Source: Candidatus Bathyarchaeota archaeon (GTDB taxonomy: Archaea; Thermoproteota; Bathyarchaeia; Bathyarchaeales; Bathycorpusculaceae). Taken from it: 64,000 nt of DNA. The translations under genes were made by a program, and so were the position numbers. The number at the start of each line of letters is the position of its first letter. The stretch's first letter is position 1. Positions 2,595 through 51,861 of the stretch are shown here, piece after piece. The notes beneath the pieces are model-generated. The model did no database searches. It was not told the DNA's origin and saw only the letters and a list, made by a program, of their open reading frames with translations. The stretch spans positions 1,395 through 65,394 of the forward strand of contig CAWHSP010000032.1 in the NCBI GenBank assembly GCA_963831865.1. Direction: 5' to 3'.

Positions 2595-2618
2595 TGTGAC
2601 TGTCAAGTGACACCCACA
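2595..2618. promoter_or_regulatory. 24-bp regulon palindrome upstream of the multicopper oxidase TATA box
   Basis: TGTGACTG-tcaagtga-CACCCACA next to TTTTAAAA. Confidence 0.65.
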
Positions 2619-2887
2619 ACCAAGCAAGGCATCTCTGCACTAAAGGTAGTCAAAAGGGCGCAAGTCACTAACAAATCATGTTTTCGCAAGTTGAATAACA
2701 AAATAATCAGAATAAGCCGATTCAGCTAGTGGCCTAACTTTAACCCATATTAAAATGTTGCTTACCCATGCCCTAAAATAATCATTCACTCCATATTTGT
2801 CTTTACGCCTGATTTGGGGCTTCTTTAGACTTTTTTAGATGTAATTGTTAGTCCGCTGTTATTTGCGGGTGCTGACAATTTAGGTAA

Positions 2888-4628
2888 TTAGGTTCTTTCC
2901 TCATGTTGACGATAGTACTGCGTGGCAGCAGCGCCTTTGGCTCTTGGACTAGGATCTCTAATGCTAACTGTAGGAGATGAAGTATAACCGCTGCCCGGAT
3001 TCGTAAGCACTATGCCAAAGATTACGCCATTTGAAACTCTTGCAGTAGCCGTAGCGCCTGATCCGCCTCCGCCCGTAATGATTACAGCAGGAGTAGTGTA
3101 ACCACTACCACCACTCTGAACATTGAAACCCGTGATTGAAGTTGTTCCAGTCGTAATGTTTACTGTTAATGACGCATTATGATTTAGTGAGCCGTAAGAG
3201 CCTACTATGGTGACGTTGTATGTTCCTGCTTTAGCCCCAGAGGATGTAGTCACGGAAAGCACAGATTTATTTGAACCACCTAAAGGAACAACAACCGAAG
3301 ATGAATTGAGTGATGCAGTCCAACCTGAAGGAGGGTACGCTGAAAGAGAAACTTTGCCAGCGAAACCGTTAACAGATGTGACTGTGATGTTGGAATTACC
3401 CAAAGACCCATTCCGCACTGATATTGTAGATGGGGATGATGAAATAGAAAAGTCAGAGCCGATTCCGGTTGTAAAGTTCCAGGTCATGGGGCTGCCTAAG
3501 CCAGTCACTAGGTCGTAGCCTGGAGCTGCTAAGTATGCACCGTTTGATCCTGAAGTGATGTCTCTGAAGTATGTTGGGCTGTTCCATTTTGCATCTTGGT
3601 ACAGGTTGTTGCTTGACACTGAAAGTCCAAGAGAATGTATAGCTGCCCATTGCGGAGCGCCTGCGCTTGTTCCGCCAACTTGGAACCAGCCGGTTTGCCC
3701 ATTGTAAGCAGTTGTGTCATATACCGGGAAGCCTGATGCTGGATCTGCGTCGTAAGAAACATCGGGAATGCCCCGTTTGCCATTTACTCCTGAGATGTTA
3801 TAGGTTATTTGATATTGAGGTTCTGATTCGTAAGCACTTATGCCGCCGCCGCTGCCGCTCCAAGCCGTTTCTGAAGAAACTGTTCCATCAGGGTTAAGCC
3901 TTAGGGATGTCCCGCCAACTGCGACTACATTCGATGAAGAGGAAGGCCAGATTACACCAGATCCGCTGTCTCCTGAAGAGGAAAAGAAGACAACGCCATG
4001 ATTGCTGGTAAAATAGGAATTCAAAGTGCTTTCACCTATAAACTCAGGTCCACCCCAACTCATAGATACTGCAACCACATCAGCGCGATTTGTGGCGTAA
4101 CTAACTGCCGCAAGAAGATCAGCCAATGAGTTACTTTGGGCCTCCACCAGAAGTATTGTTGCGTTTGGAGCTATCGCGTGAGCCCACTGCACGTCAAGCG
4201 ATATCTCAAGTGCCCAACCAGCATCCACTGCAATGTTTGGGGTCATTTTGTGTACTTGAAAGTTTGTGGTCGGTAACCCGAATTGGTTACTGAATGTGAT
4301 AAAGTCATTTTGAACTGTTGGGCAATCGTAGGCATCGACTAATAGCAATTGTTCCGTTGCCGCCTTTCGCAGGAAGGTTGTAGACTTTCCGAATCTGGGT
4401 TGGAGTTAAACCTGTTGGACTTATAGTTGCGAGGGTTACGCCTTCTGGGGTTTTTCCCGCAGGTGAGTAAAGGTGAAACCACGTGTTTGCTGTCCAGCTG
4501 TCAGCGGGAGATGTTGACGCTACCGGGGATATTTCTGGAAAGGTTACGGCAAGTATAAGCGCAACAAGAAGAATAACTACGCAGGTTTGGGTTCTCTTTG
4601 TCAAAAGCAACATATTTTCAACTCTCAA
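2888..4628 (-). CDS. Secreted S53 (sedolisin/kumamolisin-like) serine peptidase with C-terminal Ig-like and GSGYT domains; frameshift near 4340
   Basis: EISLDVQW (Glu/Asp), SSGDSG oxyanion motif, GGTSAGAP catalytic Ser, [10 protein letters not shown]; signal peptide in the 4305..4628 ORF. Confidence 0.9.
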
Positions 4629-5116
4629 TAGTTTCTGTTAACCTCGAATTAACTTTTCAGATTCCAAGTAATTTCTTGTAACCAAAGTCTTGAGTCTCCA
4701 TGTAATAAAACCTTCTATAGCTTCTTTATGCAATTTAATCATTAAGCTTAGATCTACTTCATCAATCAGCTATATCCAGGACAAAATACTGCGCCATGAT
4801 CAACCAGGAATTTCTGAAACCTACAAGCAGATTCTGAAAAATAAAGATGCACTAAAGGCGTTGTTCCGATGCTTTGTACTTCTTTTCTTGTTTTGCGAGT
4901 TCTAGCAATTCGTCTAGCAAATTAGGTTGCGGTTTCAAAGACAAAAACAAATGGTGCCAACATGATTAATCCCGTAACAGGAGCGGATCAGGCCCAAAAA
5001 TCCAAAATACCAGCAAGATCAATACATAAGCTATAATTTTGTATGCAAGGTCTCTCACACTTAGACTCGCTCCACTTCGAAAAAATTGAAGCGAAAGAAG
5101 TCTTATTGTTCGGCGC

Positions 5117-5439
5117 CTAGGCAGTTTTACTTTGACGGATATTTCTTCGGATATTTGCTCTCTAGTTTTGCCATCGGTAGGTATTCCAAGCCGCTGAGCA
5201 GTCTCAAGCAACATCTCATCCTTACTCTTTATTGCAGGAGCAGATCGCTGTTCAACAACAACAGAGCTAGTCATAGCAGCAGACGAAGTTGCAGCATCAG
5301 TAAACTCTTTCTGCGCCTTACTAAACTCACCCTTAGCCCTACCTAAAGACTTAGCAAACTCTGGAATCTTCGCAGGACCCCACATAATAATAACAATCGC
5401 AACAACACCGATGATAATCCATTCCCATCCTTCAAGCAT
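5117..5439 (-). CDS. tatA: Twin-arginine translocase TatA/E subunit; true stop probably near 5117 after a frameshift
   Basis: GWEWIII...MWGPAKIPEFAKSLGRAKGEF. Confidence 0.9.
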
Positions 5440-5507
5440 TCTTAAACAGATACTCCTTGAATTGTTTGTTTAGCTTATTTCTTACCCCGTATTTTAATAA
5501 ATAGCTT

Positions 5508-5531
5508 TGTTGTTGTGCGCTACCAGTCACA
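5508..5531. promoter_or_regulatory. 24-bp regulon palindrome upstream of the tatA TATA box
   Basis: TGTTGTTG-tgcgctac-CAGTCACA, 4 nt from TATTTATT on the minus strand. Confidence 0.65.
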
Positions 5532-5790
5532 ATCGCTTGTCAACTTGTTAATTACAGAAGTTGGAAAACGTGAAACGCCCAAAATAATATTGTAAAGCAT
5601 CACCAAATTCGCTTACACAAGTTTTTACGCTTATTATTCAGACTCTACCCAATGCGCCACAGGAGCAGAGCTTTCTGCCTTGCTGTCCAACCATATCGTC
5701 AGTAGCTTTTCTTTACTCACAGCAAAGGAAAAATTTACTCAAAACTTATAAGCAATTTTGAGGCAAATAGCTCCGTGAGCAATACAATAC

Positions 5791-8437
5791 TTGCTCAAAA
5801 TCAAATATGGAGAGAGAAAATTGAATATTTCAAGAAAAAAAGCAAACTTTGCAGTAATATCCCTTTTGATATTCTTAATGGCTTCAACCGCAATATTTAC
5901 ATCACCAACTAAAGCAGCAGGAATAACCGCCGGCAACCCTCAAGGAATAGTTGTTACCGGCACAACGGGACCTTTACCCAGCGGAATCATACCAGACGGA
6001 ACAGCCGCAACAACATCCTATCTAAGTGTTAGTCCCTCTAAAATAGGCTTAACTCAACCAATACTAGTCAACATGTGGATTCAGCCCCCACCAAACGCAG
6101 TCAGATCACTCAAAGACTACACTGTAACCCTTAACAAAACCAGATAAAACCACCGAAACAATTGGCCCGCTAAACTCATACCCAGCCGACTCAACAGCAT
6201 GGTTCACCTATGAACCTGACCAGATAGGCAATTGGTCTGCATCCTTCACCTTCCCAGGACAATACCTACCAGCCGGATTCTACCTTGCAGGAGTACTAGT
6301 CGCATACCCCAATGGAACAAGGCTCGCAGGAGCCCCAGCAACCGGAGGAACAAACCTTACCTCAACCTACTATCAAGCCTCAACAAGCAAAACAATAAAC
6401 TTTGAAGTACAAACTGACCTAGTTGCCTCATGGCCAACAGCACCACTCCCAACAAGCTATTGGGCACGACCAATTTCAGTCAACTTCCGAGAATGGTGGC
6501 AGATCGCAGGAAGTTATCCATGGGGATACGCCAACAACTACAGATTCCAAGGACCATACGTTACAGCACCAAACACAGCACACGTTATTTGGAGACGCGC
6601 AGGTGAACTAGGCGGCATTGTAGGCGGCGACGTAGCAGAAAGAGGAGGCGGAGGCGTTCAAACATCAATCTACAGCGGAGGAGGATTCGGCATGGACACA
6701 AACTTCCCAAGCATAATCTTCATGGGCAGATGCTACCAAACAATAACAAAACCAATGATGCAATTAGTAAACGGCTCAGAAGTAATGTTACCTACAAGCG
6801 TTTGGCAATGCTATGATTTACGAACAGGACAAATCTACTGGGAACAAACAGGCATAACGATGGTACCAACTAGAATCATGTGGGAAGCAGCCACTCCAGA
6901 AGTAGCAGGAGCAGAATCCGACTGGAGATCAGCACCAGCACTAGTTTACATTAGCGCTAACCGATTAGTAAAGTACAATCCATTCACAGGCGCTGCAAGC
7001 ACAAACGTATCCATTCCTTTCACGGGCACGGTGTGGGGAAACGAGAAAGTCTACAGTGTACAAACCACAGGGGTAACAGCTGATCCATACCGCTTAGTTA
7101 TCTGGAACCTAACTGGAAGCAGCACAGACTTTAGCACCAGAGTAATGAGCAACGTAAGCTATCCATTCGCCAGCTTAGGCACTGCCGATTTCAACACTGG
7201 CATAGCAGTTACAAGAGGCACAGTTTCAACCGCAGGCACACAAATTTCAACATTCCTACAGGGCGTCGATCTAACAACAGGAAAACTACTTTGGAACGTA
7301 ACTTCAAGTCTCACATACTTTGAAGACCAAATGGCTGACAACGGAATGTACGCAGCATCAACGCAGACAGAGAGGCAATGGGCAGCATGGGACCTTAGAA
7401 CAGGCAAACAAGCATGGGTAAGTGAGCAAACAGGAGATCCATGGGGATGCTTCTGGTCATACTCTGCTGAATCAGGCTACGGCTTAATATACACACAAAC
7501 CTACGACGGAGTCTACGCCATAGACTGGAAAACGGGAAAAATAGCTTGGCACTTCATATCACCAACACCCTACGCATTCGAAACACCGTACACAACTGAC
7601 GGCATCAACCAATACTCATTCTTCGGATCAGCAGGCGTTAGCGTCGGAGACGGAAAAATCTTCGTGTTCAGCAACGAACACACCCCCTCACAACCCATGA
7701 CCAGAGGCTGGAAAATGTACGCACTTAACGCTACCACTGGCACAAACATATGGAACATAACCGGATACATGACCCCAGGAGCATTCGCCGACGGCTATCT
7801 AACAGCTGGCAGCGGATACGACGGCTTTACGTACGTTTTCGGCCCAAGCAAAAGCGCAACAACCGTAACAGCACCACAAACCGAAGTAACAGCCGGAACA
7901 AGCGTATTAATCCAAGGAACCGTAATGGATCAATCCCCAGGCACACTTCCATCCACCACTTCACCAGCAGGCACAGCTTCAGAAGCAGAGCCAAAACTTG
8001 CATGTGTATCTGATGAATCAATGAGCGCATACATGGAATACATTTACATGCAAATGCCAATCCCAACTAACGTCACAGTAACTGGAGTCCCAGTTAACTT
8101 GGTAGCCACAGACCCAAATGGAAACAGCGTTAACATAGGCACCGCAACAAGCGATATGACCGGCACCTTCCAATACGCATGGACACCAACAACAGCAGGA
8201 CTTTACAAAATCACAGCCGTTTTCGCAGGAACACCATCCTACGGTAGCTCAGTCGCAACGACAGGTTTGACAGTCGGCTCGGCAGCCGCAGCACCAACAC
8301 CAGCGACTACAACAACTGTAAGTGCGGTGGCAACAGAAGCCTCATTGATGACTTACATAGCGATAGCAGCAGTTGCAATAATCATTACAATCATTGCAGC
8401 CACAGTTGTTATGCTCAAATTCGGCAGACAAAAATAA
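5791..8437 (+). CDS. Membrane-anchored PQQ-binding-like beta-propeller surface protein (Bathyarchaeia-typical); frameshift near 6135
   Basis: Signal peptide; repeats such as YALNATTGTNIW and AIDWKTGKIAW; CVSDESMSAYMEYIYMQ and DPNGN motifs; C-terminal TM helix. Confidence 0.85.
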
Positions 8438-10112: not shown

Positions 10113-13008
10113 ATGCAGATTGACAAGTCAACTTCTGTTTTCGAATTACTCGCTAAACCTGTCCAAAAAGCACTAGCAAAGCTTGGCTTTTCTGAGCCAA
10201 CATTACCCCAGACTCTGGCGTTTCCTCCAATTCTTGAGGGAAAGAATGTTCTTTTGATTGCGCCAACTGGCACTGGGAAAACAGAAGCTGTGCTTCTCCC
10301 CGTATTCTCCCGTCTAATTGAAGAGAAAAATCAAGAGCAAACCGGTATACAGGTAATTTATATCACGCCGCTTCGTGCGTTGAACCGTGACATGTTCAAG
10401 CGATTAACACTTTGGAGCGAACAATTAGGCATTACCATTGAAGTACGGCATGGCGACACAGAAATGAAAATCCGAAGAAAACAAGCACGTCAACCTCCAC
10501 AAATGCTAGTTACTACCCCTGAAACACTGCAGGCAATTCTTCCTGGGTCTCAAATGCGCCGTCACCTAAGTAATGTGCAATACGTAATAATTGATGAAGT
10601 TCATGATTTAGCTGAAAGCAAACGAGGAGCGCAGTTGGCAATAGCGCTTGAACGCGTCTTTGAAGTAACAGGTAAAGAGTTTCAAAGAATTGGCTTATCA
10701 GCAACTGTAGGCAATCCTGAAGAAGTGGCAAAGTTTATTGCAGGAACTCACAGGGAAATCGACATTGTACAAGCTGTTTTAGCCAAGAACTACCGCTACC
10801 GAGTAGAATATTTAACGCCAACAGAAAAAGACTACGAGCTAGCGGCTAAACTGGAAACAACTCCTGAAGCCTCAGCTAGAATCCGTCGATTAACCGAGCT
10901 CATAGACAACCATAAATCCACTCTGGTTTTTGTGAACAGCCGAACAATCGCCGAGTTGCTCGGGCACAGATTTGACCAACTAAACCGAAATGACGTATCC
11001 GTGCATCATGGTTCGCTTTCGAAAGGAAGAACGCACTAGCATAGAGGACGCTTTCAAGGCTGGAACACTCAAGGCAATTATCTGCACAAGCACATTAGAG
11101 CTGGGCATTGACATTGGCAATGTAGATTTAGTTATTCAATACATGTCGCCAAGGCAAGTCAGCAGCTTAATCCAACGGGTCGGTAGAAGCGGCCACAGTC
11201 TTGAACGGCTCTCAGAAGGAGTCATCCTCACTGCTTACCCCGATGACACATTAGAATCCATAGCAGCTGTAGAAAACGCCACCAAAATCAGGCTTGAACC
11301 AGTGCTGATACACAAAAACGCCCTGGACGTTTTGGCTCATCAAATTGCAGGCATCCTTATGGATAAACAAAGCATAAGCCAAACTGAACTTTTTAAAATA
11401 ATCAATCGAGCTTACCCATACAGCACCCTAAGTACTAAGCAGCTTGAGGATGTAATTGGTTTTTTAGAGAGCCTACGCAACCTTAGATTGGAAGAAGAAG
11501 ACAAAGTCTTGAAGAAAACAGGAAGAACCCGCGAATACTATTACAGCAACCTATCAATGATACCTGACGAGAAACGCTACCCCGTAATCAACGTTCTAAC
11601 TGACAGAAAAATCGGCACTTTAGGCGACGAATTCATGACCCTGCACGCACGAGTAGGACTGCATTTTATTATGCGGGGAAAAGTCTGGCGCATAGTCCAG
11701 ATAATTGATGAAACAGGAACAGTACATGTTATTCCAGCGGAAGATCCATCAGCCGCAATTCCAGGGTGGGATGGAGAAATCCTACCGGTGCCTTTTGGTT
11801 TAGCGCAGCAGACAGGGGAAATGCGAGAGAAAATCGGGAAATTGACTTAAGGAGGGCAAGAAACCTGAGGATGCAGCTGACGATATTGGCTGTTGAATTG
11901 AAGACTGACAAAGCAACACTTCTGGAAGCTGCACTGGAAATTGACGAACACCTCAAAACAGGAACACCGTTGCCTACGCAAAACCGCATAGTTATAGAAA
12001 CATTGGATCGATATGTTGTTGTTCACGCATGTTTCGGCGAGCTTGTTAACCGAACACTAGGCGGAATCTTTGATTCAGTTCTGTCTGAACGCGAGGCAAT
12101 CACCGGATGGTGGACAGACGGATACCGGATCCTGCTAGAAACCACTCATAAACTTTCTAAACTAGAAGCTGAAGGCTTGCCAAGAGAACTCTTCGATTTA
12201 ACTGACCAGCGAATTGATGAAGCTTTTTTGAATTATGTTAACTCCAAATTTCCATTCGTGGCAAGGATGAAAGCTATTGCTGAAAGATTCGGAGCTATTC
12301 CGAGGGGAAAAACTTTAGCTATGTCTGAGCGGGGAGAAAAGCTTAAGGCGGCTTTCGAGGGCACACCGATTTATGATGAAACTTTGCGAGAAGCCATGAT
12401 GGACAAAGTGGATCTGCCAAAAGTCAAAGAAATAATACAAGAAATAAAAAATGGAAAAGTAAATGTAAGCGCAGTTGTGCATGAAAAGCCGTCGCCTCTT
12501 GCATATCACATTTTGATGCAGTACGCTGACACTGCAGAGTTGATGGCGCCCGAACATGTAGTTCCTAAGCAACATTGACAGAATGAAACACTCAATTGAA
12601 GTTCGAAGCGCAAAGCTGCTATGCATGAACTGCGGAACATGGACAACACAGATGCGAATAAAAGACCTGCCTGATGAACCGCAATGCAAAAACTGCAATT
12701 CACGTTTGCTCACACTCCTTTATCCAAGCCAAGACGTAGAAAAGTTGAAGGGAGATTTGAGGAAACGTCGTGAAGACAAGGAACTAACTCCTGAAGAACT
12801 AAAAGAACTAAGCAACGCCAGACGCAAAGCTGACTTAGTGCTTAGCTATGGTAAACAGGCAATTCGAGCATTGCAGGTGAAAGGGGTTGGCCCTGAAACG
12901 GCTTCGCGGATTTTAGGTAGGATGCATCCGCAGGAGGAGCAGTTTTATTTAGATTTGCTTAAGGCGAAGATTCAGTATTTACGCACAAGAGAATTCTGGG
13001 ACAAATAG
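10113..13008 (+). CDS. lhr: Lhr-family SF2 helicase with C-terminal Cys-rich zinc ribbon; split into four ORFs by frameshifts
   Basis: APTGTGKT, TPLRALNRD, DEVH, LSAT, HHGSLS, LELGIDIG, QRVGRSGH, CMNC..CKNC. Confidence 0.9.
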
Positions 13009-15400: not shown

Positions 15401-15427
15401 TCACATGTTTAGTAAATACTTGGGATC

Positions 15428-23655: not shown

Positions 23656-23922
23656 TCATTTACTTTGTTCCCACGCGTCTATTAGGTTTTGTACAGCTTT
23701 CGCCTTAGCTGTGCGCTCGTTAAACCTGTACATATGCACTCTACCGTAAAACCGCTCTTGCAAAATCCCCTCAGATTCCAAAAGTTTTAGGTGCTCAGCA
23801 GTTACAGTAAAGTTTGCGTGAATTTGTCTAGAAATATCTGAAATGTTTGGTGAGCCCAACTTGTAAATTAGCTTCAAAATTTTCATGCGGGTTTTAGATG
23901 AAAAAACCTCTTCAAGTTCCAT
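23656..23922 (-). CDS. Small ArsR-like winged-helix protein
   Basis: FSSKTRMKIL...HLKLLESEGIL. Confidence 0.8.
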   Translation of the reverse strand: MELEEVFSSKTRMKILKLIYKLGSPNISDISRQIHANFTVTAEHLKLLESEGILQERFYGRVHMYRFNERTAKAKAVQNLIDAWEQSK

Positions 23923-29655: not shown

Positions 29656-29799
29656 GCAATCCCCTGCTGAAGTATACGATGATTAAGGCTATAAGATTTA
29701 CATAAAACCGCCGATATTCAACCAAATAGTTAGTCAAGAGAGGAGACCGTGTGAAAAGTCGCCTCTTTTTTGCTTGAAGTATGGTAAAGCTTAAATGCT

Positions 29800-29820
29800 T
29801 ATAGCTCTAATAGAGCTATA
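29800..29820. promoter_or_regulatory. Perfect 21-bp palindrome, a probable operator of the IS promoter
   Basis: TATAGCTCTA-A-TAGAGCTATA between TTAAAT (29791) and the ATG (29831). Confidence 0.6.
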
Positions 29821-29830
29821 TGTGATTTGC

Positions 29831-30007
29831 ATGCCTAAAAAAGTCAACTTTCAAACAACAAACGAACTCAAACTAAACGGAATAGTAGGCTTTGTAAAAA
29901 GAAAAGTCACCCCCCACGGCACAGGCGCCAAAGTAACCTGCCCAAAAGAGTACCTTGGCAAAACAGCCTACCTAGTCATAACAGACGAACCATACACTGA
30001 GGAATAG
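29831..30007 (+). CDS. DUF2080 family transposon-associated protein
   Basis: RKVTPHGTGAKVTCPKEYLGKTAYLVI. Confidence 0.8.
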   Translation: MPKKVNFQTTNELKLNGIVGFVKRKVTPHGTGAKVTCPKEYLGKTAYLVITDEPYTEE

Positions 30008-30011
30008 CAAA

Positions 30012-31500
30012 ATGAGCCAAACACCAGACGACTACGTAGAAGGCCTAAACAGAAAACAAACATTCCTACTGCCCAAAACAATAGAAGAATACGTAGAAAC
30101 GGACAATCCAGTCAGGTTCATAGATGCATACGTAAACACGCTTGACATGGAAAAGTTAGGCTTCACCCACTCAACGCCGCAAGATCTTGGAAGACCATCA
30201 TACAACCCAAAGGACCTGTGCAAACTCTACCTCTACGGAGGCCTAAACCACATCCGATCAAGCAGAAAGCTTGAGCGAGAATGCAAAACAAACCTTGAAG
30301 CCATGTGGCTTCTCAAAGGCTTAGCGCCTGACTTTAAGACTATAGCGGATTTTAGAAAAGACAACCCAGCAGCCATAGGCGCCTTATTCAAGGATTTTGT
30401 AGCTTTCTTAAAAGATCTCAGCCTCTATGGAGCAAAACAAGTAACCGTAGATGGCACCAAACTGCGGGCTGTCAATTCCAACTATAAAGCCTTCACCCAA
30501 AGAGCACTGGCAAAGAGAATAAAAGTCATGGAAAAATCGGTAACACATTACCTTGAAGAGTTGGATGCTGCAGATAAGCAGGAAGCATCTGATGAGCAAC
30601 AAGCCAATGGCGAAGTAAGTGAAGACGCAAAGGCTTTTGAAGTAGACAAACTGGCTGCTTTGCTTGAGAAAAAGCAGAAATCTGAAGAAATTCTTGATAA
30701 AATGGAAAAGAGCGGCCAAACAGAGGTTGCTCTTAACTGATCCGGATTGTCGGCAGATGATGAATCATGGCAGAGTAGAATCCTGCTATAATATGCAGGC
30801 AGCTGTGGATTCTAAAAACCATCTTATCGTTAATTATTTGGTGACTAACGAGGCTTCAGATCTAAATCAACTCAGCGGCGTAGCGATAAGCGCTAAAGAA
30901 ACACTTGGTGTTGAGCAGATTGATTGTATTTCTGATAAGGGGTATTTTGATTTTATGCAAATCAAGCAATGTGTCGACAATGGAGTTACTCCTTATGTTG
31001 CGGTAAAGAGGTCAGGAAGCGGCGGCAGTATTGTATCGCCAGAGTTTACTGCTGACAAATTTCGCTATGACAAGGATGCGGATGTGTATGTTTGTCCGGC
31101 TGGACAGCGTCTTTTCTTTCACTTCTGTACGTTTCAGGATGGGATGGATAGGCGAGTTTACAAGTGCCAGAAGGGTGTTTGTTCTTCATGCCAGTTTTTT
31201 ATGACTAAATGTACAGGCAATAAGACTGGACGGTTGATTTGGCGTTGGGTCCATGAGGAGGTTGTGGATGATTTGAGAGAGCGTATGAAGTTGCATCCTG
31301 AGGTTATGGATGAGCGCAAAAAGGTGGTTGAGCATACGTTTGGGACTTTGAAGAGGGCGTTTGGTGCTCCTTATTTGTTGCTTAAAGGTCTTAGGAAGGT
31401 TAGTGGAGAGGTCGGGTTGCTTTTGTTGTCTTATAATTTGAGGAGAGTTTTGAACATTCTTGGAGTCGAAGCGCTAATTGGTGCGCTTGTTAAGAAATAA
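30012..31500 (+). CDS. IS1182-family DDE transposase; frameshift near 30730
   Basis: GRPSYNP, SSRKLE, PDFKTIADFR, DGTK, TDPD, YNMQ, DKGY, VEHTFGTLK. Confidence 0.92.
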
Positions 31501-35551: not shown

Positions 35552-35788
35552 TTAACAGCGTGTGGAAATCATCAAATAATCCTTAACATTGTCTGTTCTT
35601 AATTTGTGGCTCTTAACATAATTGTCTAACTCATTAGAACATGATTCTTTAACTGAAACTGCATCAGTTAGAACTACGTAATTCCCTGTTTCAGTATCCC
35701 AAATACCCCACTCAAGGAAACCTTTGAATATTTTTGGATGACGGGCGGGGAATTTCTTTGAGAACTCTATAGCTTCGGCAAAATCCAT
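35552..35788 (-). CDS. Hypothetical protein (regulon member)
   Basis: 78-aa ORF; regulon palindrome at 35840-35863 next to TTTAAGTA. Confidence 0.65.
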   Translation of the reverse strand: MDFAEAIEFSKKFPARHPKIFKGFLEWGIWDTETGNYVVLTDAVSVKESCSNELDNYVKSHKLRTDNVKDYLMISTRC

Positions 35789-35996
35789 GCAAATTTACCC
35801 AATTTACTTAACATTTGTTTCATAAAATACTTAAAGAGTTGTGATTGCAAATAAGTAGCAACAATACATTTTGTTGTGTTTTTACCATTCAAAAGAACTA
35901 AAAAAATAAATGTAGCTGTTTGTTATTACTTCCCTTTAGCGCTTGGTTGAAAAACCTAATACTCGTTTGACATCAAAGAATAAACAGGCAGCACTT

Positions 35997-36395: not shown

Positions 36396-36635
36396 TTATT
36401 TACGATTAGCTGCTAAACCATAAATTGTTACGGCCAAGCCGATGATTGCCGCGAATCCCCCGCCAACCGCCATAAACTGATCTTGAGCAACCTTATTTCG
36501 AACTTCCGCAGAAAGGGACTGCGATATTTGACCCAGCAAACCGCCGTACTGCTGCAAATCGGAATAGCCAATCCAGAAAATCACAACACCGATAACCAAC
36601 AGAAAAACGCCCACCGCCAATGCTCCAGCTCTCAT
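36396..36635 (-). CDS. Small two-TM protein, copy 1
   Basis: Nearly identical to 43988..44230; regulon palindrome at 36680-36703. Confidence 0.75.
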   Translation of the reverse strand: MRAGALAVGVFLLVIGVVIFWIGYSDLQQYGGLLGQISQSLSAEVRNKVAQDQFMAVGGGFAAIIGLAVTIYGLAANRK

Positions 36636-36770
36636 TTTTTTGCCTCGCACTAAAATTACCATTTATACATATATAACTTTGTGACTGAGCGGTCACAGTG
36701 ACAAATGCGCTAATTTGTTTAGAACATTCATTGGTTAGTATCATTCAGATGGAAACGAAATTTTCCAGCA

Positions 36771-40237: not shown

Positions 40238-40402
40238 TTAGAGTTTTCTTTTGGCTTTGCCGACGTCTTCTTGGATTTTACCTTTAACTTTTTCAGCTTC
40301 GCCTTTAATTATTTGACCTGTGTTGCCAGTAACTTTGCCCGCGCCTACGCGGATTTTGCCTTCATCCTTTTTGAGTTTTCCTTTAACTTCATCTTCACTC
40401 AT
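40238..40402 (-). CDS. CsbD-family stress protein, copy 1 (missing from the ORF track)
   Basis: MSEDEVKGKLKKDEGKIRVGAGKVTGNTGQIIKGEAEKVKGKIQEDVGKAKRKL; palindrome at 40449-40472. Confidence 0.85.
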   Translation of the reverse strand: MSEDEVKGKLKKDEGKIRVGAGKVTGNTGQIIKGEAEKVKGKIQEDVGKAKRKL

Positions 40403-40598
40403 AAAATTTCACTATAAACGTAGTACCTCTGAGATTTAATTAAACGTGTGTGACTGTTATCTCGCACCAACAATAAGCCGTTGCTTTAAAGAGAGCTTAT
40501 TTTGTCTCGTGAGTTGAATCTTTTGAACAAATATGACTTCACGTTTACAAAAAAGTTGGGAAGCAGCTTTTGGTGCTGCTATCATGTTTTGGTTGCTG

Positions 40599-40757
40599 TT
40601 ATATTCTGCGTCCTGTAAGCAGTCGAGCAAGTATTATGATGATGGCGATGACAAGCAGAACCCATATGATAGTGCCAAGGTTGAAGATGAAAAAGCCCAA
40701 AAGCCACAATACAATAAGAATCACACCAACAACGAAAAGAAAATCAAGTGCTCCCAT
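40599..40757 (-). CDS. lmo0937/DUF5670-like small membrane protein, copy 1
   Basis: MGALDFLFVVGVILIVLWLLGFFIFNLGTIIWVLLVIAIIIILARLLTGRRI; palindrome at 40807-40830. Confidence 0.85.
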   Translation of the reverse strand: MGALDFLFVVGVILIVLWLLGFFIFNLGTIIWVLLVIAIIIILARLLTGRRI

Positions 40758-41084
40758 TTTCAAAAACCTTCACTTACCCTTAACTTGACTGCTTTATTTT
40801 AATATGTGTGACTGTGAACAAACAGTTACAACTTCATCAGCCTTTCTTTTTAGTCTTTTTGGAAGTGCATATGAATGTTTCTTAATTTTCTTTAGTTTCA
40901 GTTTCCTTTGAATCGTCAGGGTACCAATTTGTTTATTAGCCATTGTGAGAGCTGATTTTTTGAGGATTTTTAAGTGAGTGACGAAGAAGCAAAGGGCAAG
41001 ATCCAGAAAACAATAGACAAACCACATGAATGCCACCAAAACTAAGAACACATGGGTAACGGCTGGCAGTTTGGCCATAAAAAA

Positions 41085-41297: not shown

Positions 41298-41480
41298 TTA
41301 AAGGGATTCTGGGGCGCAGAGGTTTTCTGCTTTGGCAGCTGTACGCATACAGCTTTTGCAGATGTATTTCGCGTCTTTCACAAATGGCTTTATCTTTTCT
41401 ATTGGTACTTTATCCTCTACCATTTTGCAGAGGTGTTTTTCATGACCTGGATGAGGTTGGGCTTTTGACAAAACTTTCAC
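41298..41480 (-). CDS. Small Cys/His metal-binding protein
   Basis: HEKHLC...YICKSCMRTA..ENLCAP; palindrome at 41516-41539. Confidence 0.75.
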   Translation of the reverse strand: MKVLSKAQPHPGHEKHLCKMVEDKVPIEKIKPFVKDAKYICKSCMRTAAKAENLCAPESL

Positions 41481-41613
41481 TTAAACAAGTGAATGAATAA
41501 TACTACATATAGTATTGTGATTGTGCTGTCACAACTACATAATATTATGTTTCCCATCACAGAATTGTTTGGGAGAATCAACAACTATTGAATAAATTAG
41601 GGCGTTTTGAGTT

Positions 41614-41853
41614 TTAAATTTTCTTCTTGGGGGTTTGATGCTCAGTTTCCAAGTGCATGGTTAATTCTTCTTTAGTATTGAAAACTTTACCACATATTTG
41701 GCAAGTAACCTTGTTTGGCGTTGGATTACTAATTCGAGGAAAGGAAGGCTGCTGATCTGGGGATTCAAAAGAGCCATCTGGTGGGGATGGTGCAATCAAA
41801 TCATTGAATGATTCATTTGGCTTCTTTTCGTAAGGAAAATCAGGCTCAGTCAA
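41614..41853 (-). CDS. C2H2 zinc-finger protein
   Basis: CQICGKVFNTKEELTMHLETEH; palindrome at 41898-41921. Confidence 0.8.
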   Translation of the reverse strand: MTEPDFPYEKKPNESFNDLIAPSPPDGSFESPDQQPSFPRISNPTPNKVTCQICGKVFNTKEELTMHLETEHQTPKKKI

Positions 41854-42311
41854 AATCTTACCTATAATACAAGTGGTTTATGCTTTTCTTAAACATTTGT
41901 GACTGTCTAACGACAATAACGTAAAAGTAAGTCTCAGTTAAGCAAACACTTTACTCGTTTCTTTCTCTCATTTTTTTTCACGAGAATTTTCTTACAATGC
42001 AAGTTGAACCTTTCTTCTCTCTGTCCTTCTACTATACTCGATGTCCTCGCCCAAAAGCCTATCCAGCAACGATTGCGAAGTAGATATTGTGTTTCTAAAG
42101 CTGTAGGCAGGCTCTGTTTGAACTGAATAGGCAGTGCGTGTGGAGATTTTTGGTTTTATTGGTTGGTTTTATTGGTTACCCTCTTAATTTTTTTACTGCA
42201 ACTGAAAAATTGGGAAAACTATTTTATTTGTTGCTTTAGATGTTTTTCAAAGCTAAGTAACGCGTTTTTCCCTTTTCAAACTTAATCAAAACTCTTTTTG
42301 TTGAATAAACC

Positions 42312-42662
42312 TTATGTATTCTCTCTAAATGTGTATCCGCAATTTGTGCATCTTAGAAATTGGGTGGATGATTCATCTGCGCCTCTTGTTTGAACTTGCC
42401 AGGCGTACGCATTGTTGTTTCCACATCTTGAGCACGTAACCTGTATGGTTGGCAGAGTACTTAGCTGAATTTCTTTACCTAACACTGAAACTAATTGCTT
42501 TGGACTGTGGTCTATAGTTTTGCCGTTGATTTTTATGTTTTCACTTGATTCTTTTTGTTTGTGCCCACATTTGGTACATACAAGCACGAGTGTAGTTTGT
42601 TTTCCTGTTTTGACCTTTTTAGTTACAAGACGGGAACCGCATTCTGAACAAAAATCCACCAA
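42312..42662 (-). CDS. tfs: Transcription factor S (TFS/RpoM) family protein
   Basis: FCSECGS..CTKC; CSRCG..QTRGADESSTQFLRCTNC with the acidic DE hairpin; palindrome at 42712-42735. Confidence 0.9.
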   Translation of the reverse strand: MVDFCSECGSRLVTKKVKTGKQTTLVLVCTKCGHKQKESSENIKINGKTIDHSPKQLVSVLGKEIQLSTLPTIQVTCSRCGNNNAYAWQVQTRGADESSTQFLRCTNCGYTFRENT

Positions 42663-42840
42663 GAAACAACTCCTTTTTCAACATAGAAGAATATTGAAGC
42701 ATAAATAGTCATGTTACTGTGTCAGATATATAACAAAGTACAAAGTTCAGTAACGCTAAAACGATTGCAGTAACTTAGCGGTTGTTGTTTCAATTTGTAA
42801 CAGCATCATTTTATATTTGTTATAATTGTGAGTATCTAAT

Positions 42841-43280: not shown

Positions 43281-43570
43281 GATTCAAAAAAGGGATCGCC
43301 CTGCATTTCATACGCAGGACGTTTATTCGCTTGGTTTCTCTTCGGCGGGTGCAGGTGCTTCAACTGGTGCCTCAGCGATTCTATTAACATATGTAACTGC
43401 TATTAAGCACCAACAAACAACAAGCCATTGCTCTAAGGACATATTAGGTTATACAAATTGAAACAGCTTGTTTTGTCAAGAACTGTTAGCACCATTGTAA
43501 CTGTCGAAACCCAACAACAAACGGATATAGAGTAGCCTCAACAAAGTTTAGTGTATCAAGGCGATTAGAA

Positions 43571-43960
43571 ATGAGTAAAACTCTTACAAATCAAGATGCT
43601 TCAAAAATCCTGTCCCCTGTGCCTTCAAAGAACGCTTTTTATTTTTGCACTGCAGAGGGACTCTACACAAAAGTTTCAGCAATCAGTCTGGAAGATTTTG
43701 CAGCCAAATTGGATGGCATAGATAATAGCTCTATTTTGTTTCATTATCCACGGGGCGATTTTCAAGCTTGGATAAGAGACACTTTAAAAGACGATGTATT
43801 AGCCGGCAGAATGTGTTTTATTCAGCGGGATATTTCGGGAGAGCAGCTTAGGAAAGAACTGTTAAAGATGGTGCAAAATAGAATAAGTGAACTCAAAGCC
43901 TCAAAGCAAGAAATATTTCCCCCAAGCCTATGTAATAAGGACGGCTTATGCCTATCTTGA
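43571..43960 (+). CDS. DUF5752-family protein
   Basis: AFYFC..SLEDF..SILFHYPRGDFQAWIRDTL; palindrome at 43496-43519. Confidence 0.8.
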   Translation: MSKTLTNQDASKILSPVPSKNAFYFCTAEGLYTKVSAISLEDFAAKLDGIDNSSILFHYPRGDFQAWIRDTLKDDVLAGRMCFIQRDISGEQLRKELLKMVQNRISELKASKQEIFPPSLCNKDGLCLS

Positions 43961-43987
43961 AACTAATGTGGGTGCGAGGTAGAAAAA

Positions 43988-46228: not shown

Positions 46229-46412
46229 TTACTCGTGTCCTTTTGTTTCGTGGTGCGTTGTATCTCTGTGTCTCTCCATTTCTGAGTGGGTCTTGAAGGT
46301 TTTTCCGCAGTCTGGACAAGGAATCTGGCTTGGTTCTATTCCACTAATTGGTATCTCTTGGGACTGACGCCGCTCCCGACGTGTGAGGTTGCTGTGTTTC
46401 TTTTTTACGCAT
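46229..46412 (-). CDS. C2H2 zinc-finger protein; probable ATG at 46412 plus a frameshift
   Basis: CPDCGKTFKTHSEMERHRDTTH; palindrome at 46462-46485. Confidence 0.7.
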
Positions 46413-46635
46413 GAGTTACACCTAAACAATCTATTAGCGGGGTCAAGCTTTCTTAAGTATATGTGACTGTGACAAGACGACAACAAAGTCACTCTTATTT
46501 CAAAAATCCAATCTTTGTTGGTTAGAAACAAAACTCAGGAAATCAACAAGCAGAAGACCTAGTAACTTAATTATTTTTCCAAAATGAAATAAACAAGGAG
46601 GAACCTTAAAGAAGAAAGAAGAAATTTGGCGCCTG

Positions 46636-47765: not shown

Positions 47766-48026
47766 GAAAAACCACCAAAATACTATTCTCGTAGCAACTA
47801 GTAAACAAAGTGGTACCCTTACGTTTCGAAGGAACTGAACCTAAAAATAATTCAAAAACCCGCATATTCATTTCTAAAGAGACTAAATGGAAAAGGATGG
47901 TGAGTTGTAACTGTTTATTGACAGTCACACACCTTAAAATACAGATGTCCCAACTTAAGTAAAAGAGTTCAGGACCAGAGTATAGCATATTTGGAATTTT
48001 AAATCAGCGATATGAGGTAAGAATAG

Positions 48027-48353
48027 ATGCCAATTGGAAAAGATGAATGGAACAAAGGAAAAAAGAACAGAACAATTGAAGGAAGAATCTTGTCTTTCTT
48101 AAATCAAGATCAATTGTATGCATTCACAGCAGACGAGATAATGGCAAAAATAGGCGATACTATTAAAAAAGTTGGAAAGGGCACAGAAAGTAAAGCGGTT
48201 GATATTGTTCTGGAAGACTATGTGAAGGCTTTGGAGAATCTCTTACAGGAAGGAGCTATTGAGTCAAAGATGATTGAAACTGAAACCTATTATCGCGCTA
48301 CTGAAAATAGAACACTCTCTAATGCAGCACATGAAAATAAGGAGCCACTTTGA
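48027..48353 (+). CDS. Winged-helix-like hypothetical protein
   Basis: ILSFL..AFTADEI..LENLLQEGAIE..YY; palindrome at 47906-47929. Confidence 0.7.
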   Translation: MPIGKDEWNKGKKNRTIEGRILSFLNQDQLYAFTADEIMAKIGDTIKKVGKGTESKAVDIVLEDYVKALENLLQEGAIESKMIETETYYRATENRTLSNAAHENKEPL

Positions 48354-48554: not shown

Positions 48555-48923
48555 ATGAACTGCCCTGCAGATCAGATTATAATAACATGCGCTATCGATC
48601 ATGGCAACTTCACATACAACCGAATGAGGCAGGGCCAGTACACAAATAGAAGCTTCTTCTACGGAACAACAAATCTGAGCACCTATCTTGGGAATGAAGA
48701 CTTTAAGAGAACTCCTGGATTCTGCAGAATACTTGCTAAGGACTTCATCATTCCACCAAATATGTTAAATCAGACTCCTGGAAATTACTTCACAAAAGTA
48801 AGATTACTGCGGTACAATTGGATGCTTAACGACTTGAGGACCTTAGAGCGGTTCAAGAAGCGGTTGAGGGTTAAAACACTTGCCCTTGCCCTCAATTTGG
48901 TCTATGGTACATTCGTTTGGTGA
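48555..48923 (+). pseudogene. Fragment of a hypothetical gene
   Basis: 122-aa ORF whose frame continues upstream past stop codons. Confidence 0.3.
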
Positions 48924-50117
48924 CACATCAGGGGCAGCTCCAAAAACTGAACCCATCTCAATGACCCTGTTGAAGAGATTAACGTACTCTTGAGCTATAT
49001 TTGCCCAAACGAAACGCCTACTGTACTTGTATATTCTTTTTTGCATAGCTTTTCGCACTTTGGCATTTAATAGTTCAATGATACCCTCTGCTAACGAAAT
49101 TGAGTCTTTGAATTTGCAAAATACGCCTCGATTATCAGCTAATATGTCTTGGGCGTGAAAGTATGGTGTGGATACTACCGCTTTTCCAGCCCCCGCAGCA
49201 TATGTAAGTGTGCCACTGCTTATCTGGTAAGGAGAAATATACGGTGTTAAGTAGATGTCTGTAGCTTGCAGATACTTGATTAGTTCGAGTTTAGAAAGGA
49301 ACCTGTTGATAAATCTAACATTCGCCTCTAACCCCAGTTCACTAACTAGCTGTTGTAGACTATTTCTGTACTTTTCACCCTCCTGCTTTATCACTTCAGG
49401 ATGAGTTTGCCCTATTATCAAATATAATATTCTGGGTTCCTTCTTCACAACGTGTGAGAGAGCGCGAATTGCGTACTCTATGCCTTTGCCGCTGCTAATC
49501 AGCCCGAAAGTGGAAGCGACCAGCCGATTTTTCAGACCTAAGGCGATTTTAGCTTGTTCAGTATCTACGAATTCTATGTTTGGGCAACCGTGTGGTATGA
49601 CCTTGATGTTTCTGCAATTTATTCCCTGATTTTTCAGCATTTCAATTGCCGAGTATGAGATAACGACGGTTGAAGCGCTAGCCTCAGTTATACATTTTAA
49701 GACCTCCAAAGCTTTTGGGCTGAAATCAGGCAGAACAGTGTGAAGAGTCGTTACAACCGGCTTTTTGAGGGTCTCGAGAAAGAATTTTATGTATTCACCG
49801 CATTCTCCTCCGAAAAGTCCAAATTCATGCTGAAGATTAACAAGGTCAATATTTGATGAGTTAATGTATTGTGCCGCTTGGATGTAGTTTTCCTTGTATT
49901 CGCGCTTAATTTCAATTTTTACTCTGTCTTCGTAATCGTAAATTGCACCCTTTTGGTTTATCGCCAGAACCGATGGATTAAACCCGCACAATTCTTCAAT
50001 AGTATCTATCAAATCCTTTGTAAAGGTGGCTATTCCGCATTCTCTTGGAGGATAACTACTGAGATAAGCTATCTGTTTGTAGCTACCACTGCCAGATTGA
50101 TTGTTCATTTTGTGCAA
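48843..50117 (-). CDS. GT4-family glycosyltransferase
   Basis: YPPRECGIATF, QHEFGLF, TTLHT, IPHG, FGLI..KGIE, SSGTL, STP. Confidence 0.9.
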   Translation of the reverse strand: MHKMNNQSGSGSYKQIAYLSSYPPRECGIATFTKDLIDTIEELCGFNPSVLAINQKGAIYDYEDRVKIEIKREYKENYIQAAQYINSSNIDLVNLQHEFGLFGGECGEYIKFFLETLKKPVVTTLHTVLPDFSPKALEVLKCITEASASTVVISYSAIEMLKNQGINCRNIKVIPHGCPNIEFVDTEQAKIALGLKNRLVASTFGLISSGKGIEYAIRALSHVVKKEPRILYLIIGQTHPEVIKQEGEKYRNSLQQLVSELGLEANVRFINRFLSKLELIKYLQATDIYLTPYISPYQISSGTLTYAAGAGKAVVSTPYFHAQDILADNRGVFCKFKDSISLAEGIIELLNAKVRKAMQKRIYKYSRRFVWANIAQEYVNLFNRVIEMGSVFGAAPDVSPNECTIDQIEGKGKCFNPQPLLEPL

Positions 50118-50272
50118 TTCGTTTGTTTGTATGTAATCACCCCAAAACTTGCGAAAAAAACCCCAAAAGGGGGTAAAGCTATCTGCTTAACAATTGACAG
50201 TATTTTTCCGATTTCTTGAAAATCTTATTTTGGCTGATTATTGAAGCGTTGAATAGTTGGTTTTAAGTTTTA

Positions 50273-50437
50273 TTAGGCTTTTCTTTTTGCTTTGCCTACT
50301 TCTTCTTGGATTTTTCCTTTGACTTGTTCCACTTTGCCCTTAATCTGTTCACTATCGTCGCCAGTCATTTTGCCTAAACCTTCGCGGACTTTGCCTTTTC
50401 CCTGTTTAATTTTACCTTCAGTTTCGTCTTTGCTCAT
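50273..50437 (-). CDS. CsbD-family stress protein, copy 2
   Basis: MSKDETEGKIKQGKGKVREGLGKMTGDDSEQIKGKVEQVKGKIQEEVGKAKRKA; palindrome at 50482-50505. Confidence 0.88.
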   Translation of the reverse strand: MSKDETEGKIKQGKGKVREGLGKMTGDDSEQIKGKVEQVKGKIQEEVGKAKRKA

Positions 50438-50689
50438 AAAAATTCACTATAAAATAATGTCTTGCGCTTTTATTAAACATCTGTGACTGCTATCAGGCAC
50501 CAACAAGCGATAAGCCATTGCTTTCAAAGAAATAAAAATGGCAATATAGAAAAACTTAGGATAGTGCATACTGGTAGATAATTATCAAACGTGGTGAATG
50601 ACCTAACCTACCTATACAAGTGCGATTTCTTTGTTTACAAAAAAGTTGGGAAGCAGCTTTTGGCGCTGCTATCATATTTTTGGTTGCTG

Positions 50690-50849
50690 TTATACTCTGC
50701 GTCCTGTAAGCAGTCGGTACAAGTATTATGATGACAGCGATGACGAGCAGTACCCAAATGATGGTTCCAAGGTTGAAGATGAAAAAGCCCAGAAGCCACA
50801 GCAAGACAAGAATCACAGCAACGACGAAAAGAAAATCAAGTGCGCCCAT
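50690..50849 (-). CDS. lmo0937/DUF5670-like membrane protein, copy 2; frameshift near the 3' end
   Basis: Paralog of 40599..40757; palindrome at 50897-50920. Confidence 0.82.
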
Positions 50850-51100
50850 TTTGAAAAACCTTACTTACCTTTAACTTGCCAGTCTATTTTAAGATGTGTG
50901 ACTGTCAATAAACAGTAACAGCTTGTTTGCTTCTTTATTTAACTTCTTTTTTTCTCTAAGTAACGTTTTTTCAATCTTGTTTGGACGATAATGACTTACA
51001 TCTGTAGTTGCAGCTTCACAGTCACACACACTTAAACCAACCAATGACTAGCTTATACAGAAGCTTACAGACTAGGCATTAAAAGGAGGGATAGATAAGT

Positions 51101-51391
51101 ATGAAAAGTAAAGAGTATATTGATAAAGATGTTTTTGCAATGGATGAAAAAATTGGCAAAATTAAAGAAATAGAAGTAGATCCACAAGAATACAAAGTAA
51201 CTCATTTTGAAGTCGAATTGGATAAGAACGTAGCTGAATCAGTGCTTGGTGCAAAGAAAGGCGGAGTTCGAAACATGCTAAACGTAGAAGCTTTAGAGAA
51301 AGGAACAGGCATGTGGACAGAGGATGGATTGCACTTAAAAGTTGCAAAAGACAAACTCCACATGTACTTAAGACCAGTAGTTAAAACTTAG
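51101..51391 (+). CDS. PRC-barrel domain protein
   Basis: IDKDVF..EKIGKIKEIEVD..KVTHF; GGAGG RBS; palindrome at 51003-51026. Confidence 0.85.
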   Translation: MKSKEYIDKDVFAMDEKIGKIKEIEVDPQEYKVTHFEVELDKNVAESVLGAKKGGVRNMLNVEALEKGTGMWTEDGLHLKVAKDKLHMYLRPVVKT

Positions 51392-51434
51392 GCTTTCTCA
51401 ATTTTTTAGCGTATTTTAGGAGGTGTAACAAATT

Positions 51435-51632
51435 ATGACAGAACAAAAAATAGACGTCAAGGAACAAATAGAGAAAATGGGCGAGAAGTGGAACGAATTC
51501 CAGAAAACCTGGGTTTCCCACTTCAAAGACATGGAAGTGGATGTATTAGAATGGAACTTTGGTGTTGGAAAAACCGGGGAAGACACTATCTTTGAAATGA
51601 AAGCAAAGGTCGCTGTAAGACAAAAGAAGTAG
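51435..51632 (+). CDS. Hypothetical protein
   Basis: GGAGGTG RBS; 65 aa; likely co-transcribed with the PRC gene. Confidence 0.75.
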   Translation: MTEQKIDVKEQIEKMGEKWNEFQKTWVSHFKDMEVDVLEWNFGVGKTGEDTIFEMKAKVAVRQKK

Positions 51633-51649
51633 TGATCCTTAAAGAACGG

Positions 51650-51757
51650 GGGTGAGTAAAAACATCTTTTCGCTAAGAAACGTTACCGCCCGATCACATT
51701 TTTTCATTAGTGGAGGCTTAGCTGTTTTTGCCATACAACTAATTTTTTGTAGGCACT
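51650..51757 (+). repeat. Non-coding repeat of about 110 bp, copy 2
   Basis: Matches 36836-36944. Confidence 0.7.
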
Positions 51758-51861
51758 CGTATATGAAAACGAGAAAAATAGGATATCCGTTTCATTTGTG
51801 ACTGTTAATACGCAATAGCAAATGTATAATATTGACATTTGGCTGTCTTGTTTGAAGCTCA

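Follow-up and report, generated by a model that had tools for sequence, protein, structure and literature searches.

Peat and soil harbour abundant Bathyarchaeia, most of which have not been cultured. To our knowledge, archaea have no sigma factors and use TBP and TFB instead. Regulators of the TrmB family activate archaeal promoters from sites upstream of the element that TFB recognises (BRE) and of the TATA box (PMC4158304, PMC4706686; the papers cited here and below are drawn on in part). The family member TrmBL2 forms a tetramer whose two pairs of winged helices lie over 25 bp of density (PMC4877046), and an archaeal activator, HhpR, is reported to be made of CBS domains only (PMC11705074). 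In bacteria, csbD depends on SigB in Bacillus and Listeria (PMC2248587, whose main text does not mention lmo0937) and on EcfG in Sphingopyxis (PMC7083833). Here we analysed a stretch of 64,000 nucleotides (the window) from a Candidatus Bathyarchaeota genome of the family Bathycorpusculaceae (assembly GCA_963831865.1, contig CAWHSP010000032.1, positions 1,395 to 65,394), in which a preliminary description had noted a 24-bp palindrome next to the TATA box of 16 promoters. On balance we favour the reading that this palindrome is a conserved element 4 nt upstream of TATA, bound by a TrmB-family protein of about 560 aa that we name RegT, which would activate a general-stress gene set.

Results

The palindrome and its position in promoters

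The consensus of the element is TGTnryTG(T)-N6-(A)CArynACA, that is, TGTnryTG-N8-CArynACA over 24 bp. All 16 sites of the preliminary description were found at their coordinates, each with an 8-bp spacer, and a further site at 43392 brings the window to 17. With up to two mismatches allowed, the window holds 21 matches versus 2.85 ± 1.49 expected, and none of 100 shuffles reached 21. The assembly spans 2.18 Mb and is 69% complete; in it, 31 exact matches have an 8-bp spacer, versus 0-1 matches for spacers of 4-7 or 9-13 bp. A weight matrix revealed 64 sites of at least 17 bits, 62 of which fall outside the genes called by a simple custom gene finder. The densest cluster is the contig of the window itself (16 of the 64 sites on 73 kb), and the 300-kb contig C48 has no strong site.

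Six promoters of the window belong to two duplicated families (40449/43392/50482 and 40807/47906/50897), and once these are merged the 16 strong window sites represent 12 independent contexts. Removal of duplicated promoters from the 64 genomic sites leaves 52 contexts. Since these hold 52 distinct spacers, duplication does not explain the sites, and recent duplication was ruled out as their sole cause. Information is spread over both half-sites (10.5 bits distal, 11.1 bits proximal). The palindrome is almost certainly a symmetric protein-binding site, as predicted from these features.

A strict TATA box lies 2-6 nt from 29 of the 64 sites, compared with 461 of 7595 random intergenic positions. 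A core-promoter model was learned from 445 non-regulon upstream regions with a second-order background, and 163 unique sites from this genome and from fetched loci of relatives were pooled, with both ends of each site counted. Of the site ends, 19.6% have a TATA box of at least 4 bits that begins at offset 4; at each of the 44 other offsets (0-44) the share is 3.4% or less. At the relaxed threshold of 3 bits, 140 of the 163 pooled sites have a TATA box at 2-7 nt and 23 have none. The site therefore holds a fixed position just 5' of TATA, at offset 4, as do sites of the Ptr2/TFB-RF1 type.

The last ACA of the site covers BRE positions -7 to -5. At the pooled sites, position -6 is C at a frequency of 0.74, versus a purine at 0.66 in bulk promoters, and adenine drops to 0.23 (versus 0.69) at -4 and to 0.56 (versus 0.80) at -3. 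The weak BRE expected next to an upstream activating site is present, and the proposal that the site overlaps a non-consensus BRE was borne out, with -6 and -4 degraded relative to bulk promoters. A first core-promoter model had collapsed onto poly-T and its cruder BRE test was not significant (p=0.098); bulk promoters aligned on a strict TATA box gave little BRE signal. Position and weak BRE together make it likely that the site acts as an activator element. The dimeric activator of the preliminary description thus keeps its symmetric site in activator position beside a weak BRE, with activation itself predicted from the sequence.

Genes behind the sites

In this genome, the genes behind sites encode CsbD (3), lmo0937/DUF5670 (3) and DUF5752 (3) proteins, and two sites serve four genes for KGG proteins. 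Further targets are C2H2 fingers, a PRC barrel, DUF3303, a cupredoxin, DUF996, an F420-type oxidoreductase and an ABC ATPase, and a PfpI gene lies a few genes downstream of a site. Outside the window, the family scan covered 150 of the 350 listed open reading frames near sites. The targets in relatives, labelled partly by eye, include KGG clusters, a pair of GT4 and hydrolase genes, an HTH_45 regulator and urease subunits. In G120, which belongs to another order, sites adjoin PfpI, lmo0937 and CsbD genes, and in G232 ferritin, superoxide dismutase and photolyase genes are site-linked. The KGG family was detected in 20 of 80 genomes, all site-rich, by a Pfam search insensitive enough to miss the KGG genes of this very genome; each of the 20 has a KGG motif with a site no more than 400 nt away, and the TATA of that site stands at +4. 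Related-strain contigs from four peat metatranscriptome runs (three studies) cover CsbD, C2H2, PRC and non-target genes alike, which shows their presence, not their level.

The proteins lmo0937, KGG and PfpI are associated with bacterial general-stress regulons, in part according to their Pfam descriptions, and the hallmark genes of such regulons (CsbD, KGG, PfpI) are all found among the targets here. The preliminary description had spoken of a SigB-analogous regulon. Its general-stress-type targets stand, and by this analogy, drawn from target identity, a general-stress role appears fairly probable.

Some targets may be regulators themselves. An HTH_45 gene present in about half of the genus has a site directly upstream in 16 of 16 orthologs (L170:1578-1925, L175-L190), and its product is a putative conserved second-tier regulator. 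DUF5752 is found as a stand-alone protein, with three copies behind sites, as a fusion to a GH57 enzyme, and in two fusions with a winged helix (G000:C21:72983-73585 and C9:148432-148899, G000 being this genome). Throughout the order, the C21 fusion gene stands back-to-back with a GT4 glycosyltransferase gene. In G006 the helix of the fusion protein is decayed; the protein is a possible glycogen regulator.

RegT and its co-occurrence with the site

Exact sites are found in 32 of 36 sampled genomes of the genus, which is probably Ca. Bathycorpusculum (Bathy-6), and in two of 24 genomes of other families, with one site each. Across the class, 56 of 301 genomes have a match, and counts of five or more are confined to G232, G120 and five genera of this family. 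When species genomes were scanned for the site followed by TT, at least 121 loci came up; among 80 of these, 73 were Bathyarchaeia by title and the other seven comprised three bacteria, one Promethearchaeota, one Nitrososphaeria, one Nanoarchaeia and one further archaeon. At one mismatch, low-site genomes are near background (G006, 5 versus 5 in the control; G162, 8 versus 5; G183, 1 versus 2; G024, 13 versus 8).

RegT (563 aa) was picked among the few winged-helix proteins listed for G017, where eight sites go with a small number of regulators. In a panel of 80 genomes, hand-picked after site counts had been seen and divided at a threshold of five sites that was likewise set after the data were seen, orthologs of RegT occur in 40 of the 46 genomes with at least five exact sites and in none of the 34 with fewer. 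These orthologs are 73-99% identical over the N-terminal query, and the next-best matches reach 43% at most. The pattern also holds within genera: G024, G162 and G006 (2.0-2.3 Mb) lack both site and regT, and both are present in the smaller G032, G180 and G329 (1.7-1.8 Mb). The low-site genomes that were checked have tpiA assembled, and no trace of regT was found within 1.5 kb of it (in G211 the contig ends there). A single-gene TPI tree places joint losses of site and regT on at least four branches.

The gene lies between rnhB and tpiA in most loci, with rnhB upstream in 28 of 38. In nine of the 38, from four genera, a stand-alone receiver-domain gene is back-to-back with regT (e.g. L460:10653-11048). 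The present genome lacks regT. In G029, whose neighbouring genes are 95-98% identical to those of this genome, regT (L459:8906-10573) sits 1.6 kb beyond the point corresponding to the start of contig C51, and its neighbours are missing here too; the absent gene falls in an assembly gap. G035 and G325, which are site-rich and lack RegT, also lack the neighbouring tpiA, and their RegT absences are assembly gaps as well. RegT is the best regulator candidate, a TrmB-CBS protein encoded outside the window, and judged by its genomic distribution it is the probable main binder of the palindrome.

Seven other candidates were profiled over 61 relatives and rejected. The preliminary description had pointed to nearby winged-helix genes. 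The one at 48027 in the window is present in 6 of 36 genus genomes and was dismissed; those at 23656 and 28369 lay outside the profile. The C21 winged-helix-DUF5752 protein fits the genus with the exceptions of G006 and G024, but most families that have no site conserve it too. Since the HTH_45 protein with a site before 16 of 16 orthologs is absent from G001, G012, G013, G016 and G029, it was classed as a target. The GPLK subfamily of HTH_45 proteins is absent from G017, G025 and G032 and present in 11 of 24 outgroups. A TrmB protein on C42 has close copies in only about 10 of the 36 genus genomes (full-length query). A ribbon-helix-helix protein near the KGG cluster is present in G006 and in 17 of 24 outgroups, and a triple winged-helix protein is absent from G005, G025 and G032.

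The KGG cluster is also adjoined by a protein of about 320 aa that carries four clustered Cys residues at its N-terminus and, apparently, three winged helices; it is widespread in the genus (G000:C21:80453-81404 and 152802-153740; L296) and possibly a metal or Fe-S sensor. Elsewhere in the genome, two HTH_45 genes flank a TFB paralog that a stop interrupts (G000:C9:31636-34401); the subfamily of these two genes has expanded in site-rich genomes, where it numbers many copies.

Architecture of RegT and a proposed mechanism

In RegT, a winged helix is followed by a coiled coil, two domains of PLD-like type and a CBS pair. The winged helix scores 48.2 bits against PF01978 (TrmB; cut-off 25.6), and PF11495 (Regulator_TrmB) is also matched. 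In the fold model (mean pLDDT 75, pTM only 0.35), a helix at residues 76-108 follows the winged helix and precedes alpha/beta domains at 120-270 and 285-425, which is the TrmB-family layout of winged helix, coiled-coil helix and PLD-like domain. Structure searches with this model match TrmBL2, PLD and CBS domains, and the closest solved sequence is TrmBL2 (residues 13-268 of RegT; PDB 5BOX/5BPD). Y49 of RegT is invariant and aligned to the recognition-helix Tyr of TrmBL2, the next residue being Arg rather than Asp. RegT is not an equivalog of TrmBL1/Tgr (25.7 versus 650 bits in NCBIfam) or of TrmBL2 (38.5 versus 530 bits), and a separate TrmBL2-like gene is kept in these genomes. Over 25 homologs, residues 1-76 are 98% identical with an invariant recognition helix, versus 65-80% for the other domains, and the CBS part is the least conserved (65%).

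Because the TrmBL2 tetramer over 25 bp suits a 24-bp site of four TG/CA units, we infer by analogy that RegT may bind as a tetramer. RegT would occupy the site as a TrmBL2-like dimer of dimers, whose four winged helices would together read the four TG/CA units along about 24 bp. Beside a BRE without the purine at -6 and the adenine at -4, it would then recruit TFB, as TFB-RF1 does. More tentatively, the rnhB-regT-tpiA region might supply RegT constitutively. Adenosine compounds are the usual ligands of CBS pairs, and an adenine nucleotide on the CBS pair, signalling low energy charge, might switch RegT; alternatively, the receiver-domain protein encoded back-to-back with regT in some genera might do so. 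As the CBS part is the least conserved region, the signal is the weakest step of this proposal.

A second TrmB subfamily

A second type of TrmB protein, with the recognition helix RRE[D/E]VYR and often fused to a MEDS domain, also adjoins the site. In G298, G232, G255 and G229, none of which has RegT, most or some of the sites cluster round such a gene. Of 19 RRE-type rows, 10 have a site of at least 16 bits no more than 1.3 kb upstream, versus 1 of 50 other non-RegT TrmB rows, and the C42 TrmB gene of this genome is an RRE type behind a site. In G120, a divergent TrmB gene stands behind a 17-bit site, and the tree places it, on a long branch, in the wider group that holds RegT. By genomic association, TrmB proteins are tied to the site twice, RegT putatively in trans with large regulons and RRE types putatively in cis with small ones. 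The RRE subfamily probably reads the same site and would run small local clusters in genomes without RegT.

The G232 island (G232:C5:22900-33600; L343-L344) has seven to eight sites around its TrmB-MEDS gene and encodes a ferritin-like protein, a superoxide dismutase, a photolyase, a methyltransferase and a flavoprotein reductase. In the TrmB-MEDS cluster of G298 (C39, L518:459-1277), a gene for a membrane protein that looks heliorhodopsin-like by eye diverges from a site.

Points against the proposal and rival explanations

Several observations weigh against a RegT-driven general-stress regulon. Three genomes are true exceptions with sites and no RegT, namely G298 (100% complete, 6 sites), G232 (7) and G120 (54). 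Conversely, G011 (outside the panel, 58% complete) has a frameshifted regT and only one exact site, with 9 matches versus 0 in the control at one mismatch. The Fisher test for co-occurrence (p=1.7e-16) overstates the association, since the panel was hand-picked, the threshold post hoc and related genomes are not independent. RRE proteins fall outside the wider RegT-holding group; they are not sister to RegT and share only part of its helix. As to targets, many first genes behind sites have no known family, CsbD is patchy (present in three of five site-rich genomes), and tatA, the oxidase, the ABC ATPase and urease are not classic stress genes. The regT gene itself has no site in 10 of 12 rows, and the two matches face the neighbouring gene; control of RegT is therefore probably post-translational. 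Finally, profiling covered eight of several dozen DNA-binding proteins.

That reach of eight candidates is what speaks for another, unprofiled regulator, non-winged-helix or outside the profile, that was lost along with RegT. Such coincident loss would have to mimic a protein that matches presence and absence in two genera down to sister genomes and whose DNA-binding helix is invariant, and a second TrmB type adjoins the site in other families; we give this explanation a slim chance. It is slightly less improbable that the RRE subfamily, or the TrmB paralog pool, supplies the binder and RegT is merely co-retained. The frequency of sites upstream of RRE-type genes, their clustering in the four RegT-less genomes and the C42 copy behind a site agree with this, but the scarcity of close copies in the genus does not; the full-length query gave none in the 100%-complete G008 (24 sites), in the single-contig G014 (18 sites) or in G017. 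Moreover, G024 has a TrmB-MEDS copy, yet only two sites.

Since the site overlaps the BRE, RegT or another TrmB protein could also be a repressor that blocks TFB there and is released by a ligand under stress. The TrmB of P. furiosus represses at the BRE/TATA of malE in this manner and is released by sugars (PMC4158304), and coverage of -7 to -5 would allow the same here. A steric block does not, however, need spacing that is sharp to one base, the BRE is degraded instead of consensus, and TrmBL1 and OxsR sites 5' of BRE/TATA activate (PMC4706686, PMC9426492). We consider repression unlikely, although it is the least unlikely of these rivals. The preliminary description had also allowed for a dedicated TFB paralog, which would read the proximal half as an alternative BRE in the manner of a sigma swap. 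This genome has three near-complete TFB genes and a fragment, and the proximal half does overlap the BRE. Yet the information is shared equally between the two halves, a feature for which a monomeric TFB would have no need, and the TFB loci scanned have no site above 10.1 bits nearby. Given the symmetry of the site, a TFB paralog is very unlikely to be its sequence reader; it could still be the partner that RegT recruits.

Sites and genes of the window

Family searches upheld the labels CsbD, DUF5670/lmo0937, PRC, DUF5752, C2H2, TFS and TatA in the window. The TATA box had been placed 2-4 nt from the site; the range is 2-6 nt, with 4 nt at 8 of 17 sites, 5 nt at 51797 and 6 nt at 5508 and 42712. 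Features below are on the minus strand unless marked (+).

The site at 2595..2618 (24.8 bits, TATA 3 nt downstream) precedes the gene labelled as Tat multicopper oxidase (581..2386); the twin-Arg start of its product is confirmed, and the PhsA/CueO matches are below cut-offs. Next comes 5508..5531 (23.6 bits, TATA at 6 nt), before the gene of a TatA family protein (4966..5439). The left edge of the site-rich island is marked by a DUF2080 gene and a split DDE transposase (29795-31500). Within it, 35840..35863 (19.5 bits, TATA at 4 nt) precedes the gene of a 78-aa protein of no known family (35552..35788), and 36680..36703 (18.8 bits) that of a small membrane protein with a weak DUF3185-like match (36396..36662).

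The site of the CsbD promoter family at 40449..40472 (22.8 bits, TATA at 4 nt) serves csbD at 40238..40402, and that of the lmo0937 family at 40807..40830 (24.5 bits) an lmo0937/DUF5670 membrane protein gene (40599..40763). Behind 41516..41539 (23.7 bits, weak TATA at 4 nt) lies the gene of a small Cys-rich protein without family (41298..41480), and behind 41898..41921 (21.0 bits, TATA at 4 nt) that of a C2H2 zinc-finger protein (41614..41853). The site before the TFS paralog (42312..42662) is weak (42712..42735; 9.6 bits, TATA at 6 nt), its distal half having decayed. The genome has five TFS paralogs (the others on C57, C39, C48 and C24), and two of them share this same decayed site (9.6 and 10.1 bits) with the proximal half intact. 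The added site at 43392..43415 (19.6 bits) is a copy of the CsbD promoter with no csbD behind it.

At 43496..43519 (+; 21.3 bits, weak TATA at 4 nt) a site precedes the gene of a stand-alone DUF5752 protein (43571..43960, +). The C2H2 gene behind 46462..46485 (22.0 bits, TATA at 4 nt) is out of frame when compared with its C57 and C15 paralogs (46229..46413, upper bound approximate). The site at 47906..47929 (+; 24.5 bits) reads TGTAACTG-N8-CAGTCACA and precedes the gene of a 108-aa protein that is winged-helix-like by eye, with no Pfam match (48027..48353, +), a target rather than a master regulator. Second copies follow of csbD (50273..50437; site 50482..50505, 22.0 bits, TATA at 4 nt) and of the lmo0937/DUF5670 gene (50556..50849; site 50897..50920, 25.8 bits). 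On the plus strand, 51003..51026 (23.5 bits, TATA at 4 nt) precedes a PRC-barrel gene (51101..51391), and 51797..51820 (19.8 bits, weak TATA at 5 nt) the genes of a 66-aa hypothetical and a 292-aa membrane protein with a weak Phage_holin_3_6 match (51862..52984). The Lhr helicase and RNA polymerase subunit genes (10113-12578 and 59188-63980) are split by frameshifts, like many genes in the assembly; these splits are probably sequencing errors.

Discussion

In the papers searched, with subscription journals and supplements outside the scope, we found neither the motif nor the regulator, nor a broad archaeal general-stress regulon with a dedicated regulator. New here would be RegT as a regulator candidate and, as predicted from genome comparison, a TrmB-type global regulon with bacterial-type stress targets. 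A wider scenario is doubtful, though worth stating: soil and peat Bathyarchaeia might run a general stress response without a sigma factor, in which an energy-sensing TrmB-CBS tetramer would activate at least 60 SigB/RpoS/EcfG-type promoters by TFB recruitment. Its operator would have been taken over from mobile TrmB-MEDS islands for oxygen and light defence that still use it in other Bathyarchaeia, and possibly in Asgard archaea.

Now that a site, a list of targets and a soluble protein with a name are at hand, the question of an archaeal general-stress response becomes testable in vitro. The motif gives dozens of small proteins of no known function a likely role and, as a sequence marker, can tell lineages that retain the response from those that lose it. 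The one-base-sharp spacing offers a clean case for how archaeal activators contact TFB.

The set of genes behind the palindrome shares its KGG, PfpI and lmo0937 targets with the SigB, EcfG and RpoS regulons. It also has in common with SigB and EcfG regulons the presence of CsbD (PMC2248587, PMC7083833) and many small proteins of no known function. Unlike in those systems, no alternative sigma factor or partner-switching module turned up, although no search was aimed at sigma factors, and control would lie with an upstream activator on TBP/TFB promoters. Because archaea use TBP/TFB, the comparison is one of analogy, not of membership.

Among archaeal proteins, TrmBL2 is related to residues 13-268 of RegT, and the four winged helices of its tetramer span about 25 bp; unlike RegT, it is described in the text drawn on as a non-specific chromatin protein (PMC4877046). 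OxsR of Haloferax volcanii is likewise a TrmB-family stress activator with a motif upstream of BRE/TATA, but as described there it is single-domain and thiol-switched, with a CG-rich motif and oxidative and thiol targets (PMC9426492). TFB-RF1 of Pyrococcus furiosus (PF1088) has a palindrome just upstream of a weak BRE and TATA, and the TFB-recruitment model is borrowed from it. Its site differs (TCTG-N5-CAGA, two known promoters in the part of the source used; PMC5937170).

Another parallel is TrmBL1/Tgr, a TrmB-family global regulator with a palindrome, activation from upstream of BRE/TATA and secondary regulators among its targets (PMC4158304, PMC4706686). The consensus found here is not the Thermococcales glycolytic motif TATCAC-N5-GTGATA; the site is longer and keeps one fixed spacing, whereas TrmBL1 activating sites are reported up to 156 bp upstream and 21 of 28 TrmBL1 sites lie downstream. 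Where TrmBL1 carries a sugar-binding domain, RegT has two PLD-like domains and a CBS pair, and its putative targets are of the stress type, not sugar genes.

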